Shown here: positions 3,324 through 13,585 of the stretch, piece after piece
Layout: each line of letters starts with the position of its first letter
How positions within the stretch are numbered: position 1 is the stretch's first letter
UHGV virus genome: UHGV-0122598
Strand: one strand, 5' to 3'
From: a virus
DNA length: 13,585 nt
Program-made: the position numbers and the translations under genes
The notes under the pieces: model-generated
Databases searched by the model: none
Seen by the model: the letters and a program-made list of their open reading frames with translations, nothing else
What the model was told of the DNA's origin: nothing

Positions 3324-3412
3324 TGAACCAGAAGTGTCCTTTTGGAGCCTTCACTACTAATCACGACAAACAACGGCTCGCCACAAGCCATATCTAGAAG
3401 GAATGTTGCCTT

Positions 3413-3616
3413 ATGACACCTAACATTTCAATTACTCTGAATACACCACATGTCACAATCGAACGTTATAGCGAACTGACTGGCCTTTCTATTGATACGA
3501 TTAACGACATGTTGGCTGATGGCCGACTACCTCGTCATCGTCTTCGTAAAGACAAAAAACGTGAAAAGGTAATGATTAACCTGGCTGCTCTGACTGTTGA
3601 TGCTTTGTCTGCTTAA
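3413..3616 (+). CDS. Small HTH DNA-binding protein (67 aa), Apl/Cox-like excisionase or lytic regulator by position
   Basis: ORF 3413..3616, divergent from cI; AGGAA 10 nt upstream of the ATG; HTH-like segment [22 protein letters not shown] followed by a basic tail. Confidence 0.65.
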
Positions 3617-5481: not shown

Positions 5482-6335
5482 GCACCATCCTGAAATGGGC
5501 GGGAAATAAAACCGCCATTATGTCCGAACTGAAAAAACACCTTCCTGCTGGCCCGCGACTGGTTGAACCTTTCGCGGGTTCCTGTGCTGTGATGATGGAG
5601 ACGGATTACCCCAGCTATCTGGTTGCGGATATTAATCCTGATTTAATCAACCTCTATAAAAAGGTTGCCGCTGATTGTGAATCGTTTATATCTCGCGCCA
5701 GAGTTTTATTTGAGATCGCAAACAGGGAGGTGGCTTATTACAACATAAGGCAGGAGTTTAATTACTCCACTGAAATTACTGATTTCATGAAAGCGGTATA
5801 TTTCCTGTATCTCAATCGTCACGGTTACCGTGGTTTATGTCGCTATAACAAGAGCGGGCATTTCAACATTCCCTACGGTAATTATAAAAATCCGTATTTC
5901 CCTGAAAAAGAAATTCGCGCATTTGCAGAAAAAGCCCAGCGAGCAACGTTTATCTGCGCCAGCTTTGATGAAACGCTGGCGATGTTGAAGGCGGGGGATG
6001 TGGTGTATTGCGATCCGCCGTATGACGGTACGTTTTCCGGCTATCACACTGACGGCTTCACTGAAGATGACCAGTATCACCTGGCATCTGTTCTTGAACA
6101 TCGGTCATCAGAAGGACATCCGGTCATTGTTTCTAACAGTGACACATCCCTGATCCGTTCGCTGTATCGCAATTTTACTCACCACTACATCAAGGCAAAA
6201 CGCAGCATCGGTGTGGCAGCTGGCGAGGGTAAATCAGCAACAGAAATCATTGCTGTTTCCGGGCCGCGCTGCTGGGTGGGATTTGATTATTCGCGTGGCG
6301 TGGATAGTTCTGCCGTGTACGGAGTACGTGCATGA
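5478..6335 (+). CDS. dam: DNA adenine methyltransferase, Dam family (285 aa from the MSTILKW start)
   Basis: N-terminal KWAGNK...EPFAGS (SAM-binding) and catalytic DPPY ([10 protein letters not shown]); ATG at 5478 preceded by GGAGG; ATGA overlap with the upstream stop; track start at 5418 is an extension. Confidence 0.85.
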
Positions 6336-8746
6336 GTCATGCCGATATGAACAACTGCTGCGGCTTTAACGAAGCTGCCGCATCGTTCTCATGGAACAGC
6401 CCGAAAAAGGCCATTAACCCTTATCTGGACCCGGTGGAAGTTGCGCCGGTTTCTACGCTTTCAAACCTGATCACTCTGTACGCTGCCGATAACGAGCAGG
6501 AACAGCTGCGCCGTGAGGCGCTGAGTGATCAGGTCTGGGAGCGTTATTTCTTTAATGAATCCCGTGATCCTGTCCAGCGCGAAATGGAACAGGATAAGCT
6601 CATTAGTCGGGCAAAGCTGGCGCATGAGCAGCAGCGTTTTAATCCGGATATGGTCATTCTGGCGGACGTCAACGCCCAGCCTTCCCATATCAGCAAGCCG
6701 CTGATGCAACGTATTGAATACTTCAGCAGCCTGGGCAGGCCAAAGGCTTATTCCCGCTATTTACGTGAGACGATTAAGCCATGTCTGGAACGACTGGAGC
6801 ATGTACGCGACAGTCAGCTATCTGCATCTTTTCGCTTTATGGCAAGCCATGAAGGGCTGGACGGCCTGCTGATCCTGCCTGAAATGAGTCAGGATCAGGT
6901 GAAACGCCTGTCCACCCTGGTAGCTGCGCATATGAGTATGTGCCTTGATGCCGCTTGTGGCGATTTGTATGCCACCGATGACGTTAAGCCAGAAGAAATC
7001 CGCAATACATGGGAAAGGGTGGCAGCGGAAACCCTGCGTCTGGATGTAATCCCGCCTGCGTTTGAGCAACTCCGTCGGAAAAGAAACCGCCGTAAACCCG
7101 TGCCCTATGAACTCATTCCGGGTTCGCTGGCGCGTATGTTGTGCGCCGACTGGTGGTACCGGAAATTATGGAAAATGCGTTGCGAATGGCGGGAAGAGCA
7201 GTTGCGTGCTGTCTGCCTTGTCAGCAAAAAAGCATCTCCCTATGTCAGCTATGAAGCCGTGTTGCATAAACGTGAGCAGCGCCGTAAGTCGCTGGAGTTT
7301 TTCCGTTCTCATGAACTGGTGAACGAAGACGGCGACACGCTGGACATGGAGGATGTGGTAAACGCCAGCAGCAGCAACCCTGCGCATCGCCGCAATGAGA
7401 TGATGGCCTGTGTTAAAGGTCTGGAGCTTATCGCGGAAATGCGCGGTGACTGCGCCGTTTTCTACACCATCACCTGTCCGTCACGTTTCCATTCCACGCT
7501 AAATAACGGCAGGCCCAACCCGACCTGGACAAATGCGACGGTAAGACAAAGCAGCGATTATCTGGTCGGTATGTTTGCTGCATTTCGTAAGGCGATGCAC
7601 AAAGCCGGGTTGCGCTGGTATGGCGTGCGGGTGGCTGAGCCGCATCATGACGGTACAGTTCACTGGCACCTGTTGTGTTTCATGCGCAAAAAAGACCGCC
7701 GCGCCATTACTGCATTGTTGCGTAAGTTTGCTATCCGTGAAGACCGCGAGGAGCTGGGCAATAACACGGGGCCGCGCTTTAAGTCTGAGCTGATTAACCC
7801 GCGCAAAGGAACGCCGACAAGCTACATAGCGAAATACATCAGTAAGAACATTGACGGGCGTGGTCTGGCTGGCGAGATCAGCAAGGAAACGGGTAAATCT
7901 CTGCGTGATAACGCTGAATACGTGAACGCCTGGGCGTCTTTGCATCGTGTTCAGCAATTCCGCTTCTTTGGCATTCCGGGGCGTCAGGCTTACCGTGAAC
8001 TGCGATTGCTGGCTGGTCAGGCGGCAAGGCAACAGGGGGACAAAAAAGCAGGTGCGCCGGTACTGGATAACCCGCGCCTTGATGCCATCTTGGCTGCTGC
8101 TGATGCTGGTTGTTTTGCCACCTACATCATGAAGCAGGGCGGCGTACTGGTTCCCCGTAAATATCACCTCATCAGAACCGCTTATGAAATCAACGAAGAG
8201 CCGACCGCCTATGGCGATCACGGCATTCGTATTTATGGCATCTGGTCACCCATTGCAGAGGGCAAGATCTGCACTCATGCAGTGAAGTGGAAAATGGTTC
8301 GTAAAGCCGTTGACGTTCAGGAGGCGGCAGCCGACCAGGGCGCTTGCGCCCCTTGGACTCGTGGCAATAACTGTCCCCTTGCTGAAAATTTGAACCAACA
8401 AGGGAAAGACAAATCAGCTGATGGGGATACCAGAACGGACATTACCCACATGGATGACAAGGAGTTGCACGATTACCTGCACAGTATGAACAAAAAAGAG
8501 CGCCGGGAACTGGCTGCAAGGTTACGCCTGGTGAAACCGAAACGGCGTAGAGACTACAAACAGCGAATTACAGACCATCAACGACAGCAGCTCGTCTATG
8601 AACTGAAGTCCAGAGGATTTGATGGCAGCGAGAAAGAGGTCGATTTACTCCTTCGCGGCGGCAGTATTCCGTCAGGAGCAGGCCTGCGTGTCTTCTATCG
8701 GAACCAGCGTTTGCAGGAAGATGATAAGTGGCGGAACCTGTATTAA
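6332..8746 (+). CDS. A: Phage replication initiation protein, P2/186 gene A family (rolling-circle endonuclease, 804 aa)
   Basis: Large ORF starting with an ATGA overlap on the dam stop; GGAG 7 nt upstream; HUH-like motif VHWHLL and YIAKYISK segment typical of gpA-type replication endonucleases (family knowledge). Confidence 0.85.
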
Positions 8747-8899: not shown

Positions 8900-9088
8900 A
8901 TGCAGGACTATTTTTTGGAGTCTTTGAAGCTCCAGCGCATTGATTTTTTTCTTAAGCTTGTAGCGGCTAGTGAGTGTAGTGATGAAGAGAAGGGGCTGGC
9001 TCTGCAGTGGGTTTCTGAATTGACTGATGAACTCATGGCAAAAATCAGAAGCCACGAATACAACCGCTCAATGGATGTCATCAGCTGA
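8900..9088 (+). CDS. Small SOS-regulated protein (62 aa); Tum-like antirepressor by position only
   Basis: ATG at 8900 preceded by GGAGG (8891-8895); directly downstream of the LexA box; the track start at 8798 lies upstream of the operator and is implausible. Confidence 0.5.
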   Translation: MQDYFLESLKLQRIDFFLKLVAASECSDEEKGLALQWVSELTDELMAKIRSHEYNRSMDVIS

Positions 9089-9098
9089 GGTGACTTTT

Positions 9099-9332
9099 AT
9101 GCGCATTGAAATAATGATCGATAAAGAGCAGAAGATTAGCCAGTCTACCCTGGACGCTCTGGAGTCCGAGCTTTACCGCAACCTGCAACCCATCTATCCC
9201 AAGACCGCTATCCGCATCCGTAAAGGGTCGGCAAACGGCGTTGAGCTGAGTGGCTTAAAGCTTGATGAAGACAAAAAGCGGGTGATGGAAATTATGAAAC
9301 AGGTTTGGGAAGACGACAGCTGGCTGCACTAA
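9099..9332 (+). CDS. dinI: DinI-family protein (77 aa)
   Basis: MRIEIMIDK ... LDALESEL ... DEDKKRVMEIMKQVWEDDSW aligns by eye with E. coli DinI (MRIEVTIAK ... EDKQRISEILQETWESADDW); ATG at 9099 with GAGG 8 nt upstream; track start at 9027 is an extension. Confidence 0.8.
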   Translation: MRIEIMIDKEQKISQSTLDALESELYRNLQPIYPKTAIRIRKGSANGVELSGLKLDEDKKRVMEIMKQVWEDDSWLH

Positions 9333-9450
9333 GGAACGTTCCTGATGTAAGAACTTGAATCTGACGTCAGCAAGGTTGAACAACGAGAGTAGCGAGGCGT
9401 TAGCCATGGGTAAAAAAGACAGTAATCACCAGATTATTTATCGGGGCTAG

Positions 9451-9666
9451 GTGCTGGAACGTTTAACCCTTGGCGACTGGGTCTTCTTTCAACGCCCAAA
9501 GGAGTGTGGCGGAGGTTTTTGGTTGGGCCGCATCTATGAAGACTGCTTCTGGCTTGAGCTGGAATTTCCCGTTTCGCTATATGACGGCCTGGGGTTTTTG
9601 ATGGAAGTCACTAGGGTAGAGCAGAGAAGTGATGAGGTTGACGCGAATTATCCCCTGTTTGATTAA
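9451..9666 (+). CDS. Doubtful hypothetical ORF (71 aa, GTG start, Trp-rich)
   Basis: ORF 9451..9666; GTG start, weak RBS, no recognisable motif; may be a remnant. Confidence 0.3.
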   Translation: MLERLTLGDWVFFQRPKECGGGFWLGRIYEDCFWLELEFPVSLYDGLGFLMEVTRVEQRSDEVDANYPLFD

Positions 9667-9685
9667 AAATGTATTAGCTTATAAT
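9659..9685 (+). promoter_or_regulatory. Candidate sigma70 promoter for the membrane-protein gene: TTGATT, 15-bp spacer, TATAAT
   Basis: Perfect -10 TATAAT at 9680-9685, about 30 bp upstream of the ATG at 9715; -35-like TTGATT at 9659-9664 with a short spacer. Confidence 0.35.
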
Positions 9686-9714
9686 GGAATACTATTTTTG
9701 CAGGTGGGGGCGCA

Positions 9715-10326
9715 ATGGATTTAGTCTTTAAAGTTCTGGCTTCGTTGGGTGGGGTGTCTTTTGTTGCATCTGGCATATTTGTTTGGATCGGGAAAGTTTA
9801 TTTAGAAAGATATAAGTCGCGGCTAAACAAAGATATTGCTGAATTTCAATCACAACTGAGTGCAACTAATGAAAGAATAAAGGCTAAGTTAGACAATTCT
9901 GTTTATGTAACGAAAGCGTATTTTGATAAGGAGTTATCAGCATATAGTCTCATTTGGAATTCGATGTTTGAAACCAGAGAAAGCGTGCTTAAGCTGAGGC
10001 CTGCGCTGGATCATGTTGACCCCAACGAACCATTTGAAGAGAGAAAATTTAGAAGGTTGAAAGTTTTTTTTGATGCATTTAACACTTTTGTTACAAGTGT
10101 TGAATCTAACAAACCGTTCATCTCACCAGAGGTTTATATAATCTTGGACCGTTTCCGGAAGGAATGCCTTTCAGAGTCAATATCGTTTAAGCATAGCGAT
10201 CCAGAATTTGACGGGCAAAATTATTGGAAAGAGGCGGAGTTGAACCGTACAACCATCACCAAGCTTTTTGATGAGACGTGTGATGCAATTCGAGACAGGA
10301 TGCACACATTAACTGTGGTTACGTAG
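9715..10326 (+). CDS. Hypothetical single-pass membrane protein (203 aa): N-terminal TM helix plus a helical cytoplasmic domain
   Basis: ORF 9715..10326; GGTGGGGG upstream of the ATG; N-terminal LVFKVLASLGGVSFVASGIFVWIG is a predicted TM helix; about 40% GC by eye; own candidate promoter and downstream terminator. Confidence 0.6.
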   Translation: MDLVFKVLASLGGVSFVASGIFVWIGKVYLERYKSRLNKDIAEFQSQLSATNERIKAKLDNSVYVTKAYFDKELSAYSLIWNSMFETRESVLKLRPALDHVDPNEPFEERKFRRLKVFFDAFNTFVTSVESNKPFISPEVYIILDRFRKECLSESISFKHSDPEFDGQNYWKEAELNRTTITKLFDETCDAIRDRMHTLTVVT

Positions 10327-10416
10327 GTTTCCAAAAAGTCTCGATGCCCGCTTTGGAGATTGTGCATGTCTATGCCGCATGAGATCGCATGATCGTTTGA
10401 GGATCGTTTTTGCTAA

Positions 10417-10441
10417 GGCCCGCCAGAACTGGTGGGCTTTT
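10417..10441 (+). terminator. Rho-independent terminator (GCCCGCC stem, 6-nt loop, GGTGGGC, then TTTT)
   Basis: 7-bp GC-rich stem with one G-U pair followed by TTTTG, about 90 bp downstream of the 203-aa gene stop. Confidence 0.6.
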
Positions 10442-10486
10442 GCGTAGATCATGCAGGTGCATGAAAACCACTACATAAAGCGGGCA

Positions 10487-10505
10487 GGCGTGGCGGGGAT
10501 ACGAG
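10487..10505. other. cos-like sequence (GGCGTGGCGGGGATACGAG) resembling the 19-nt cohesive ends of P2/186-family phages
   Basis: First 13 nt, GGCGTGGCGGGGA, match the 186/P2 cohesive-end sequence as I recall it (GGCG[T/A]GGCGGGGAAAGCA[T/C]); the position between the early-region end and the portal-like gene fits prophage synteny. Confidence 0.4.
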
Positions 10506-10592
10506 CGCGCGCTTAGCCATGAATCTGTGGACTTGATGGTGAAGCTAAGGTAATTTGTATCAAAAAAAAGCAGTACAATAGGGATATATAGA

Positions 10593-11672
10593 GTGGCGTT
10601 ATCAGATGCGTTAATTACAGTAAATCAAGCCGAACGGGGCGGTGAAAACGCGTTGAGAGGCTTTTCATATCAAGCCTCTTGGGGGATAAATTATTTACTT
10701 GAGAAACAAAAAGAAAAGGAGAAATATTTATTTCTATTTGAATATCATGACGATATTCTTGTATTGAATTCATCTGTTTCTCCGACTAGTGCTGAGTTTA
10801 TCCAAGTTAAAACAAAAAAAGATGGTAAATGGACACTCGCAGCAATAGTGAACGCAACAAAAGCTAAACCTAAATCATTTGTTGCAAAACTATATGACCA
10901 TTTCTATCAATTCGTTGGTCACGAAATTTATATGGTTCTGTTATCGAATGCTGGATTCGATTTCTTAAATGATAATAACGAAAAAGGTAGTGATCTTAAT
11001 AATGAGCATAAGGAAATTATAATTAGTAAGGTTCAAGAGCAGCTAAATACTAAAAAAGAAGTTCCTCTTGATAAAATAAAATTTAAAACATCTGATCTTA
11101 GTTTGTTAGATCCTAACTCACATTTATACGGGAAAGTTGCAGTTTTTTTGAATTCTTACTTTGGGGATGATCATGGTATTAATTCAACAGCATTCACTAA
11201 ATTATTAATCAATAAGTGTAATGAGAAGGTTAGTGTTGCTTCTAGTGATATCAAAACTTTTGAAGATTTAGTACTAAAGAAAGGTATATCTTCAGAATTT
11301 GTAACTGATTTATTATCTGGACTCATTGCAAGCATAAAAATAACGCCAAAATGGGAACAGGTTTGTATGTTGCTTGGTACTTTCTCAGATCCTTATGAGG
11401 GGATTAAATTACAATCAGTTTTTACACGCATATCAATAAAAGTGCTCAATGTCAATTCAATATACTATCTTTATTTTCTGGAATTTCAATCGGCTCTAAA
11501 GAGTATAGAGCATTATCGTGAGATACCTGTTCGAGACCTCTTCTTTACACTCGAAAAAACAATTGCAGCGGGGGACGGGGATTTCTCTTTATTAAATCAA
11601 GAAGAGAAATTTATGATTGCTATATATGCAATTATAAAGTTGACTTTTGAGGATGTTTCTTATGAAGAATAA
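10593..11672 (+). CDS. Candidate PD-(D/E)xK-type nuclease effector (359 aa), Cap4/LmuA-like N-terminal domain plus an uncharacterised C-terminal domain
   Basis: ORF 10593..11672 (GTG start, AGGGA upstream); N-terminal LFLFEYHDDILVL ... EFIQVKTKK fits a hhD ... (E/Q)xK restriction-endonuclease-like core; about 30% GC by eye; last 11 nt overlap the start of the downstream ATPase gene. Confidence 0.6.
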   Translation: MALSDALITVNQAERGGENALRGFSYQASWGINYLLEKQKEKEKYLFLFEYHDDILVLNSSVSPTSAEFIQVKTKKDGKWTLAAIVNATKAKPKSFVAKLYDHFYQFVGHEIYMVLLSNAGFDFLNDNNEKGSDLNNEHKEIIISKVQEQLNTKKEVPLDKIKFKTSDLSLLDPNSHLYGKVAVFLNSYFGDDHGINSTAFTKLLINKCNEKVSVASSDIKTFEDLVLKKGISSEFVTDLLSGLIASIKITPKWEQVCMLLGTFSDPYEGIKLQSVFTRISIKVLNVNSIYYLYFLEFQSALKSIEHYREIPVRDLFFTLEKTIAAGDGDFSLLNQEEKFMIAIYAIIKLTFEDVSYEE

Positions 11673-13320
11673 CGTTAAATTTAAAAATATAAAAATACTC
11701 TCATTAAGAGACAGAAAAGCTTTTTCTTATGAGTTTTCAGAAGGGGTTAACTTCATATATGGTACAAATGATGTTGGTAAATCAAGCCTGATTAAAAGTC
11801 TTTATTACACATTAGGTGGAGATTTAAGGCTTGATGATGCTTGGAAATCAGATGATATAGTTACACTGGTGGAAATTAATAACGGGGAAAATGATTTTAT
11901 TTTTTTGCGTTATAAAAAGATTATTGGTGTCTTTGATTTGAAGAATGATGATCTAGTCGTGTATAACACGATTTCGTCATTAGCATCTCGTGTTTCAAAT
12001 ATATTTGGTTTTAAACTGGAATTACATAATAAATATACGGGTGCTACGACTCAGGCAAACCCTGCTTGTTTGTTTGCCCCATTCTTTATTGATCAGGATG
12101 AAGGATGGAAAGCGGTGATAAATTCTTTCGAAAACATGAGTATGTACTCAGAATGGCAAAAAAACATTCTTTACTATCACTCTGGAATTAAGCCAAAGGA
12201 ATATTATACAGTTCAAGGGAAAATCAAAGAAATTAAAGTTAAAATTTCAGAGTTAGATGGTTTTGTTAAGGTTCTAAAAAGAAGCAAAAGTAAGATTGAT
12301 GAATCTTTTGGCGTGGTTTTATTTGATGTTGATTTGGATTTTTATAAATCAAAGTTGGAACGTATATTAAATGAATATTCTAATTTAAATTTAGTTCAGA
12401 CAGAATATAGATTAAATCTTTTGAGGTTATATTCTAGGAAGAATTTCCTTGAGAGTGAACTCAAAGAGATAACTGCGATTATTGATAATGAATTTGAGAT
12501 TTCGAATTTTCGAGATGATAATGTTGCTTATTCAGTAAATGAATATAATTATATAAACCATAGAGATGAAATGCTCAAAAACATTGCTGTTCTTGCAGAT
12601 GAGAAAAGCAAGATTGAGGAAAATATTCCTAAATTGAATCAAAAGCTAGAAGAGTCAAGGGCTGCTTCAGAGGCGTTGCAGGCGCTGATTTTAGAAACTC
12701 AATCGGAAATAACGCTTCATGATGTTATTAAATCTGCCGCATACCATGAAATTGAATCTACTTTTATTTCACAGTTAGATGAGTTATTCGTTGAGATTGG
12801 TCGAAAAGAAGGCGAGTTGACAGAATTACAAGAAGAATTAGAAGTATACAATGATAAGAAAAGAACTGTTAAAATAAATGACTGTTTCAAAGAGTATTTC
12901 GCTAAAGCTCTTAAAGAGCTTGGTGTCGAAAATACAAAGGTAGGTGGCCTTAGTAGTTATAATAATATTACTAAGGGTAAGACTGGTAGTCGAGGTCCTC
13001 GAGGTATATTTGCATTTCACTACGCGCTGCTTAGTGTTATGAAAAGCAACTCTTCAGTTGAGAATATGCCTATAGTAATAGACTCTCCAAAGCAACAAGA
13101 TTTGGATCCAGAGCATACGCATAAGCTTATAAAACTATGCTTGGATGGGTTTTCCCTTACAAATCAGATTATTATTGGAACTGTTGGTTATGAGAGTTTC
13201 ATGGATGGTTTTAATAGCATCAAACTTGAAAATAAATATCATCTTTTAAATGATGAACATTATGATAATGTTTATTCTCAATTAATGCCATTGTTTGAAC
13301 GGGTGATACTTTCAAGATGA
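11662..13320 (+). CDS. SMC/ABC-type coiled-coil ATPase (552 aa from the MKNNVKF start), LmuB-like
   Basis: ATG at 11662 with GAGGA 9 nt upstream; Walker A GTNDVGKSS at residues 34-42; long E/K/L-rich coiled-coil middle; Walker-B-like MPIVIDSP, D-loop-like DLD and His near the C-terminus; the track start at 11647 is a 5-codon extension. Confidence 0.75.
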   Translation: MKNNVKFKNIKILSLRDRKAFSYEFSEGVNFIYGTNDVGKSSLIKSLYYTLGGDLRLDDAWKSDDIVTLVEINNGENDFIFLRYKKIIGVFDLKNDDLVVYNTISSLASRVSNIFGFKLELHNKYTGATTQANPACLFAPFFIDQDEGWKAVINSFENMSMYSEWQKNILYYHSGIKPKEYYTVQGKIKEIKVKISELDGFVKVLKRSKSKIDESFGVVLFDVDLDFYKSKLERILNEYSNLNLVQTEYRLNLLRLYSRKNFLESELKEITAIIDNEFEISNFRDDNVAYSVNEYNYINHRDEMLKNIAVLADEKSKIEENIPKLNQKLEESRAASEALQALILETQSEITLHDVIKSAAYHEIESTFISQLDELFVEIGRKEGELTELQEELEVYNDKKRTVKINDCFKEYFAKALKELGVENTKVGGLSSYNNITKGKTGSRGPRGIFAFHYALLSVMKSNSSVENMPIVIDSPKQQDLDPEHTHKLIKLCLDGFSLTNQIIIGTVGYESFMDGFNSIKLENKYHLLNDEHYDNVYSQLMPLFERVILSR

Positions 13321-13326
13321 AAATAT

Positions 13327-13344
13327 GGCCTCAGAAATGAGGCC
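13327..13344. terminator. Hairpin GGCCTCA-GAAA-TGAGGCC between convergent genes; likely bidirectional terminator
   Basis: Perfect 7-bp stem with a GNRA-type loop 7 nt after the ATPase stop; an ATATTTTC run follows it on the minus-strand transcript. Confidence 0.5.
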
Positions 13345-13360
13345 GACTAAATTATCTTAA

Positions 13361-13585
13361 TTAAATTTTTAGTTCGTAGGTTGAAAAATTTATAATTCTA
13401 TCGTTTAACCAATTATTTATTTCTAGAAACATTTTTTGTAGAGGCAGTAGCTCATTTCGTACAAATACTGTGCTTGCCTTTTCGATATCCCCAAACCCCC
13501 CGACATTATTAGGCATTATCCCCATCATTTGTGGCGGCACACGATGCGCCGCCATCATGTCATCCCGGCTCACGTTCTTGATATT
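13361..13585 (-). CDS. 3' end of a phage portal-like gene (P2 gpQ-like C-terminus); partial, the reading frame stays open to the window edge
   Basis: C-terminal sequence AAHRVPPQMMGIMPNNVGGFGDIEKASTVFVRNELLPLQ resembles the P2-family portal C-terminus as I recall it; orientation and position just beyond the cos-like site fit P2/186 prophage synteny; the GTG at 13573 is not the true start. Confidence 0.55.
   Translation of the reverse strand, partial: NIKNVSRDDMMAAHRVPPQMMGIMPNNVGGFGDIEKASTVFVRNELLPLQKMFLEINNWLNDRIINFSTYELKI

Follow-up and report, generated by a model that had tools for sequence, protein, structure and literature searches.

The whole stretch of DNA that was analysed, referred to here as the window, was 13,585 nt long. 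Its gene order was gpA, a small phrog_698 gene, a DinI/Tum-like gene, a 71-aa ORF, a 203-aa ORF, a putative cos site, two AT-rich genes on the + strand, a predicted terminator and gpQ (Table 1). The window was part of a P2-like prophage (Peduoviridae) of the Felsduovirus/Elveevirus type, and its nearest relatives were Klebsiella and E. coli phages of that type. The DinI/Tum-like gene was the equivalent of 186 tum, and comparison with Cartapus suggested that its true start was likely near 9099. The putative cos site had gpA (+) on one side and the 3' end of gpQ (-) on the other, the arrangement seen in every relative; gpQ was transcribed towards it, and this is where the P2 family carries its cos. 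The window ended within gpQ; in 813R9, 4LV2017, SEN8 and Cartapus the gpP gene came directly after gpQ. In what follows, the interval from gpA/DinI to cos is called the A-side and the interval from cos to gpQ the Q-side.

Table 1. Features of the gpA-gpQ interval, in window coordinates.
Feature	Position	Strand	Basis and remarks
Replication endonuclease gpA	6332..8746	+	Homologue annotation; backbone; right-arm boundary of the hotspot
DinI/Tum-like gene	9027..9332	+	Pfam DinI E=4.9e-23; backbone, homology continues to 9404
A-side cargo slot	9405..10361	+	957-bp cassette, GC about 0.37-0.42; empty in Kp4845-2 and 813R9
71-aa ORF	9451..9666	+	Profile match to phrog_2100
203-aa ORF	9715..10326	+	phrog_26391; hydrophobic N-terminal segment; last gene before cos
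Conserved putative recognition block, right-end side of cos	10362..10486	.	About 0.9 identity at same-allele loci; BLAST limits
GCATG/TGCAT boxes	~10363, 10377, 10387, 10450, 10458	.	Followed by TGCATGAAAACC and AAAGCGGGCA beside the predicted nick
Hairpin GCCCGCCAG-aa-CTGGTGGGC-TTTT	10418..10441 (repeat 10418-10437)	+	GC-rich with T-run; read from the sequence
19-nt putative cohesive-end sequence, cosN equivalent	10487..10505	+	Similarity to 186 and P2, identity to SEN8 and Cartapus
Left-end flank cGCGCGC	10506..10512	.	Last conserved bases before the Q-side cargo; present in P2, 186, P4, SEN8 and Cartapus
Q-side cargo slot	10513..~13390	+	GC about 0.30; starts 7 bp beyond the overhang and reaches into the final portal codons; homology depth 0-1
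LmuA, Lamassu effector, Cap4-type dsDNA nuclease domain, 359 aa	10593..11672	+	PADLOC, Pfam
LmuB, SMC/Rad50-like ATPase, 557 aa	11647..13320	+	PADLOC LmuB E=8.6e-254, full length
Predicted hairpin terminator on which lmuB and the portal gene converge	13327..13344	.	GGCCTCATTTCTGAGGCC with T-run; terminator scan
Portal gene gpQ, 3' end	13361..13585	-	Pfam Phage_portal; runs off the window

The 19 nt at 10487-10505 read GGCGTGGCGGGGATACGAG on the + strand. It had been claimed in a sequence-only reading of this DNA that they resembled the start of the 186 and P2 cohesive ends, and its coordinates coincided exactly with the 19-mer. The reference records bore the claim out: 15 of the 19 nt matched the annotated 186 cohesive end (GGCGTGGCGGGGAAAGCAT) and 14 matched that of P2 (GGCGAGGCGGGGAAAGCAC). 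The first 13 nt were identical to 186, from which the window departed in the last 6. The 19-mer also began with GGCG(T/A)GGCGGGGA, as P2-family cohesive ends do. However, the last 6 nt of the overhang were TACGAG in the window, AAGCAT in 186 and AAGCAC in P2, so the window departed at its end from both of these experimentally sequenced overhangs. On alignment, the window allele was of the SEN8/Cartapus type in these last 6 nt and not of the 186/P2 type. Namely, the record of Salmonella phage SEN8 (Felsduovirus, NC_047753) annotates the exact 19-mer as cos at its position 1-19, and the 19-mer was also found inside the 59-bp "putative cos site" of Cartapus (Elveevirus, NC_070909), a prophage of E. 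coli LF82. Both of these sites had been annotated by analogy, the Cartapus record describing its own as homologous to the cos of P2. SEN8 was a plaque-forming, CsCl-purified phage whose cos was assigned during annotation (PMC5427200), and encapsidated Cartapus genomes were detected at low level by qPCR and virome sequencing (PMC9928086). A similar ...ACGAG overhang has been remarked on in the Stenotrophomonas phage Smp131 (PMC3931495).

The 13-mer GGCGTGGCGGGGA had a single exact occurrence across the window, and with up to two mismatches allowed the chance expectation was 0.14 matches per dinucleotide-preserving shuffle of the window. It could be argued that a motif this short was a chance match in GC-rich sequence with no role in packaging. 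This was extremely improbable, since even the relaxed expectation was far from one match, the site was always between gpA and gpQ among the matches listed, and about 125 bp of flanking sequence was conserved across P2, 186, P4, SEN8 and Cartapus, which refuted the idea.

The 19-mer was embedded in a conserved block of 151 bp (10362-10512). Within it, GCATG boxes, a hairpin, TGCATGAAAACC, AAGCGGGC, the 19-mer and GCGCGC followed each other in the order known from P2, 186 and P4. When the window was aligned with SEN8, Cartapus, 186, P2 and P4, all six shared a plan that started with three distal GCAT boxes and a GC-rich inverted repeat and continued with (ATGCA)...TGCAT(T/G)AAAACC, AAAG(C/T)GGGC, the 19-mer and GCGCGC. 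The P2-family core, consisting of the TGCAT(T/G)AAAACC...AAGCGGGC right arm, the GCGCGC left arm and the distal GCAT boxes, was therefore present in the window; a P2-family "55-bp core" is credited to Ziermann and Calendar (1990) as cited in PMC3931495 and PMC5694545. On the 5' side, TGCATGAAAACC...AAAGCGGGCA of the window aligned with TGCATTAAAACC...AAGCGGGC(G/A) of P2, 186 and P4, and on the 3' side cGCGCGC aligned with tGCGCGC of P2 and 186. The cos sequence was preceded by ...gcattaaaaccgccccgtgaagcgggcg and followed by tgcgcgc in P2; the corresponding flanks were ...gcattaaaaccgacccataaagtgggca and tgcgcgc in 186 and ...gcatgaaaaccactacataaagcgggca and cgcgcgc in the window. Thus, the alignment to the 186 and P2 cos regions that the sequence-only reading had put forward as a check gave similarity in the 19-mer and in both flanks alike. 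The upstream block was 90-98% identical in SEN8 and Cartapus, and the 19-mer together with GCGCGC was identical in both. Over the whole 151 bp, the identity to the window was 100% in Kp4845-2 and 98-99% in 813R9 and 500465-1.

Five GCATG/CATGC boxes occurred in 125 bp of the cos block, compared with 0.15 per 125 bp elsewhere, and this was the sole cluster of such density in the window. These GCAT boxes can be considered candidate terminase-binding sites. An inverted repeat equivalent to the hairpin at 10418-10441 was found in SEN8, Cartapus, 186 and P4, and a terminator, t95b, is annotated upstream of cos in 186. The hairpin was not flagged by the automatic terminator scan; from its sequence, it was probably the terminator of the rightward transcripts of gpA, DinI and the cargo. 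The same scan proposed a minus-strand hairpin beside the nick (10483-10468), which we rejected because it needed a G-T pair and was not conserved as a hairpin. An Rfam scan of the whole window returned no family at threshold.

P4-like satellites have no other region in common with P2 (PMC9122126). The retention of the cos plan in P4, which otherwise shares nothing with P2, suggested selection for recognition by the helper terminase. Since P4-like satellites have the same cos type, the site in the window might in principle have come from an integrated satellite of this kind and not from a P2-like phage. The gene context refuted this: the neighbours of the site were gpA, DinI and gpQ, and not psu, delta, sid or alpha. 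Moreover, the ATACGAG allele of the window was seen in no P4-like locus among the matches listed, and we regarded a satellite origin as almost inconceivable. The P4-like satellites recovered, recognised by psu, delta, sid and alpha homologues, were loci L008, L027, L037, L048, L063, L078, L092, L095, L098, L110 and L113. Among the matches listed, their cos alleles were AAAGCAC, AGAGCAT or AAAGCAT, and AGAGCAT was present in satellites only. This distribution may reflect helper specificity or sampling.

The limits of the block were examined in a panel of at least 120 loci retrieved by a pattern scan of IMG/VR with GGCGNGGCGGGNANNNNNNNGCGCGC. These loci were selected by the pattern and were related to one another, so they were not phylogenetically independent, and conservation at the 17 positions that the pattern fixes was circular. 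At least 35 of the matches listed had the exact window allele (ATACGAG), at least 29 had AAAGCAC, at least 22 ATAGCAT and at least 11 AAAGCAT. When the loci were registered on the 19-mer, the identity to the window among the matches listed was about 0.9 over positions -125 to -1 for loci with the same allele, and outside 10362-10512 it dropped on either side to background (about 0.25-0.3). Wherever gpA or gpQ was detectable in the matches listed, cos was downstream of gpA (+) and upstream of gpQ (-). The limits were confirmed by BLAST searches that made no use of the pattern: 91 phage records were found, most relatives aligning over 10362-10512/10517 only, with homology stopping at 10512-10517. 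Among 5426 complete E. coli genomes, 1287 also had matches, which as a rule covered 10362-10513 and the portal end.

Homology to relatives fell sharply on either side of the cos block. In the panel, among the matches listed, the backbone was covered to about 9404, coverage was almost nil over 9405-10361, returned for the cos block at 10362-10512, was nil from 10513 to about 13390, and resumed with the backbone inside the portal ORF, at about 13390-13440. The A-side slot was bordered on its left by a conserved motif at 9372-9404 (GGTTGAACAACGAGCC..GCGAGGCGTTAGC), and homology to most relatives was lost straight after it. The same motif was located downstream of orf97 in 186 (186 record, L004, about 3385-3417), and it had no Rfam family.

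Comparison of individual relatives gave direct evidence that the contents of the two sides were combined in different ways. The window had a 957-bp A-side cassette (the 71-aa and 203-aa genes) and a Lamassu system on the Q-side. Kp4845-2 had the same Lamassu with an empty A-side, where window position 9404 was joined to 10362 via 6 bp (TCTGTA). The A-side of 813R9 was likewise empty, with the same 6-bp junction, and its Q-side carried a Hypoth_Ymh gene. Cartapus possessed the same 957-bp A-side cassette (97% identity) together with a DUF4145 gene on the Q-side. Different DNA was found on the A-side of 4LV2017, accompanied on the Q-side by a hypothetical gene and a reverse transcriptase that formed a retron-like pair, and SEN8 combined a leftward DNA-binding gene on the A-side with a hypothetical gene and an HNH gene on the Q-side. 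E. coli H2 had the Q-side Lamassu without the A-side cassette, its match beginning at 10362. The A-side cassette and Lamassu occurred together in none of the 5426 complete E. coli genomes. Since the same cargo on one side was accompanied by different or no cargo on the other, the two slots assorted independently. It had been claimed before these comparisons that two separate cargo sites flank cos, and Kp4845-2 (Lamassu with an empty A-side) and Cartapus (the A-side cassette with other Q-side cargo) upheld this.

The lengths of the two sides were also variable. Among the matches listed, the distance from the gpA stop to cos was 457-5666 bp (n=76; 1740 bp in the window) and that from cos to the gpQ stop, the comparison proposed along with the claim, was 145-4389 bp (n=88; 2855 bp in the window, as opposed to about 170-180 bp in P2 and 186). 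In these 88 loci, the cos-to-Q distance was at most 250 bp in 43, which were empty like P2 and 186, and exceeded 700 bp in 34. Both sides could be measured in 64 of the matches listed: 14 were loaded on both sides, 32 on the A-side only, 12 on the Q-side only and 6 on neither. The lengths of the A-side and the Q-side were negatively correlated among the matches listed (r=-0.43), as a shared capsid-size limit would be expected to produce.

It could therefore be asked whether gpA-gpQ is a single continuous variable region that contains cos by happenstance, with no slots that exchange separately. The interval counts as one hotspot in Rousset 2022 and in the NAR 2026 study, and the negative correlation indicated that the sides were not fully independent. 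On the other hand, that correlation is what a shared packaging-size limit would give, the 151-bp block divided the variable stretches in all relatives, and the same cargo on one side was paired with different or no cargo opposite. We considered a single undivided region very unlikely and retained the reading with two slots.

The Q-side cassette of the window was, by homology, an intact two-gene Lamassu defence system of type I, comprising a LmuA Cap4/DUF4297 nuclease and a LmuB SMC-like ATPase. LmuA was a full-length match to its PADLOC profile (E=4e-143) and also matched Pfam Cap4_nuclease (E=1.4e-33); the Cap4 nuclease domain covered residues 15-212 of 359, with about 150 aa beyond it. LmuB had weak SMC_N and Rad50 matches besides its PADLOC hit. 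As in type I Lamassu, both proteins were full-length PADLOC matches and the genes overlapped as an operon, by 26 nt; the system had two genes only, without a separate LmuC. The AT-rich two-gene cassette that the sequence-only reading had placed between cos and the portal gene was thus real, and Lamassu is its identity. Gene content between gpA and gpQ differed among otherwise related phages and included this LmuA/LmuB anti-phage system, assigned by homology, which is the behaviour of a defence hotspot. The cassette was 99.6% identical in Kp4845-2 (over 10362-13585) and 99.9% identical in E. coli H2, while the backbone identity between the window and Kp4845-2 was 96%. Better conservation of the cassette than of the phage backbone fits recent horizontal exchange.

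The stretch 9700-10350 of the A-side cassette was common to none of the 120 IMG/VR loci listed. The 71-aa ORF matched phrog_2100 from profile position 17 onward only, and its Cartapus counterpart was annotated 16 codons longer (87 aa); the window ORF may have a different start or be truncated at its 5' end. The 203-aa protein had a hydrophobic N-terminus, as read from its sequence, and probably a coiled-coil stretch. It had no Pfam, NCBIfam, PADLOC or PDB match. In phage records the sole close copy was in Cartapus, in the same slot, and distant matches (26%) were found in one Pseudomonas and one Clostridium phage. Its position is equivalent to that of Orf97 in 186, and the two proteins proved unrelated on comparison. 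We consider the 203-aa protein a candidate single-gene exclusion or defence factor. The earlier suggestion that a membrane-protein gene lies at the right end of the phage genome agreed with this gene: it has a hydrophobic N-terminus and, as the last gene before cos, would occupy the right end of the packaged genome.

The Q-side slot appeared to extend into the portal gene itself. The last 75 nt of gpQ (13361-13435, - strand) had a GC content of 0.19, compared with 0.49 in the next 150 nt, and the last ~25 gpQ codons fell within the variable region. Among the matches listed, the GC content of this portal tail was 0.505 in loci with an empty cos-to-Q slot (n=41) and 0.351 in loci with cargo (n=34), the latter being near the GC content of the cargo (0.365); the difference was significant in a Mann-Whitney test uncorrected for relatedness (p=2e-11, among the matches listed, loci L007-L126). 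The portal C-terminus of the window was aligned with those of P2, 186, SEN8 and Cartapus, and the protein pattern PLQ...N.W....F..Y.L was retained. It seems that every cassette brings along a portal C-terminal tail of its own.

One further contig with the ATACGAG allele deserves a description of its own. L099 (IMGVR_UViG_2700989567_000009, a 13.5-kb contig) lacked gpA, and upstream of its cos it had a lambdoid/Rac-like module with a RecE-like exonuclease VIII, RecT, YdaT, a DnaC/IstB-like ATPase, a ParB-HTH protein and an integrase. A DndB-like gene was present on the opposite side of cos. The contig has the appearance of a mosaic whose junction is at, or close to, the cos block.

Taken with their position between gpA and gpQ, the sequence of the 19-mer and the architecture of its flanks supported the earlier claim that this was the cos of a P2-like phage. 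Very probably, the block at 10362-10512 is the cos region of a P2-like (Peduoviridae; Felsduovirus/Elveevirus-type) prophage, and terminase cleavage and two-slot cargo exchange would proceed as follows. After excision and replication, the terminase, made of gpM/gpP homologues that would be encoded beyond gpQ and outside the window, would recognise the GCATG boxes and TGCATGAAAACC...AAGCGGGC on the right-arm side. By analogy with 186, whose record notes "top strand cut at 5' end and bottom strand cut at 3' end", the two strands would be nicked with a 19-nt stagger, the top strand at 10486/10487 and the bottom strand at 10505/10506. The product would be a linear genome with 5'-protruding 19-nt cohesive ends (GGCGTGGCGGGGATACGAG), carrying the Lamassu cassette at its extreme left and the 203-aa gene with the 125-bp recognition block at its extreme right. 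Since constraint around the 19-mer was limited to about 125 bp on one flank and 7 bp on the other, the DNA just outside the block would be free to vary and forms the two slots. SEN8, a viable phage, had no counterpart of P2 positions 27-160; the left arm past GCGCGC thus appears dispensable, so that cargo can begin there. Related phages would exchange the slots (gpA/DinI to cos and cos to gpQ) through recombination events located in the conserved block and in the backbone on either side.

The site might also be a genuine cos by ancestry that survives as a relic, the prophage around it being defective and unable to package DNA. The window covers only part of the prophage, and its close relative Cartapus yields very few virions and has no propagation host found (PMC9928086). 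Against decay, the block was still 100% identical to that of Kp4845-2 and 98-99% identical to those of 813R9 and 500465-1, its 19-mer and GCGCGC were those of the plaque-forming SEN8, and gpA, DinI, LmuA, LmuB and the part of the portal gene inside the window were all intact ORFs. A relic site was accordingly judged very unlikely, and a cos that still serves packaging remained our preferred reading.

A broader model followed from these comparisons, for and against which we see about equal grounds. In it, the gpA-gpQ "hotspot" would be two independently assorting cargo bays, split by the 151-bp cos block that serves both as a shared recombination anchor. The Q-side bay would reach into the portal ORF, each cassette bringing its own AT-rich version of the last ~25 portal codons, and capsid capacity would set an upper bound on the combined load, accounting for the negative correlation of the lengths.

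Much of this picture was already known, including the cos type, the hotspot and the presence of accessory genes to either side of cos. What has been published as a P2 defence hotspot, "adjacent to the cos site", is this gpA-gpQ interval; it was described as one locus with 18,150 occurrences in E. coli (Rousset 2022, PMC9122126), and the same single-hotspot view is taken in NAR 2026 (PMC13586616) and in the iLund4u preprint. The window agreed with the P2 hotspot in its interval, in its AT-rich variable cargo and in having a recognised defence system. In contrast to the single locus of the hotspot papers, it had two slots split by the cos block; the P2 genes old and tin belong to the A-side slot only. 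According to PMC5694545, the position of cargo between cosL and Q was already proposed as a hotspot for foreign genes in the 1990s (Dodd and Egan 1996; Nakayama 1999). Foreign genes flanked by the left cohesive end and the portal gene, as in the window, occur in phiCTX and in the Ralstonia phages phiRSY1 and phiRSA1 (PMC5694545). Their cargo, however, consists of ctx and vgr-like genes in other hosts, whereas that of the window is Lamassu. Cargo on both sides of cos, like that of the window, was present in SEN8 and Cartapus.

To this the present analysis adds the exact limits of the block, direct evidence that the slots assort independently, and the observation on the portal tail. It is useful for annotation in that it would define where the packaged genome ends and exactly how far the slots reach in the prophage, and it assigns the AT-rich cassette beside cos to Lamassu. 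The proposed two-bay structure and a portal tail that seems to move with the cargo are small refinements, and they leave the picture of P2-like phages unchanged.
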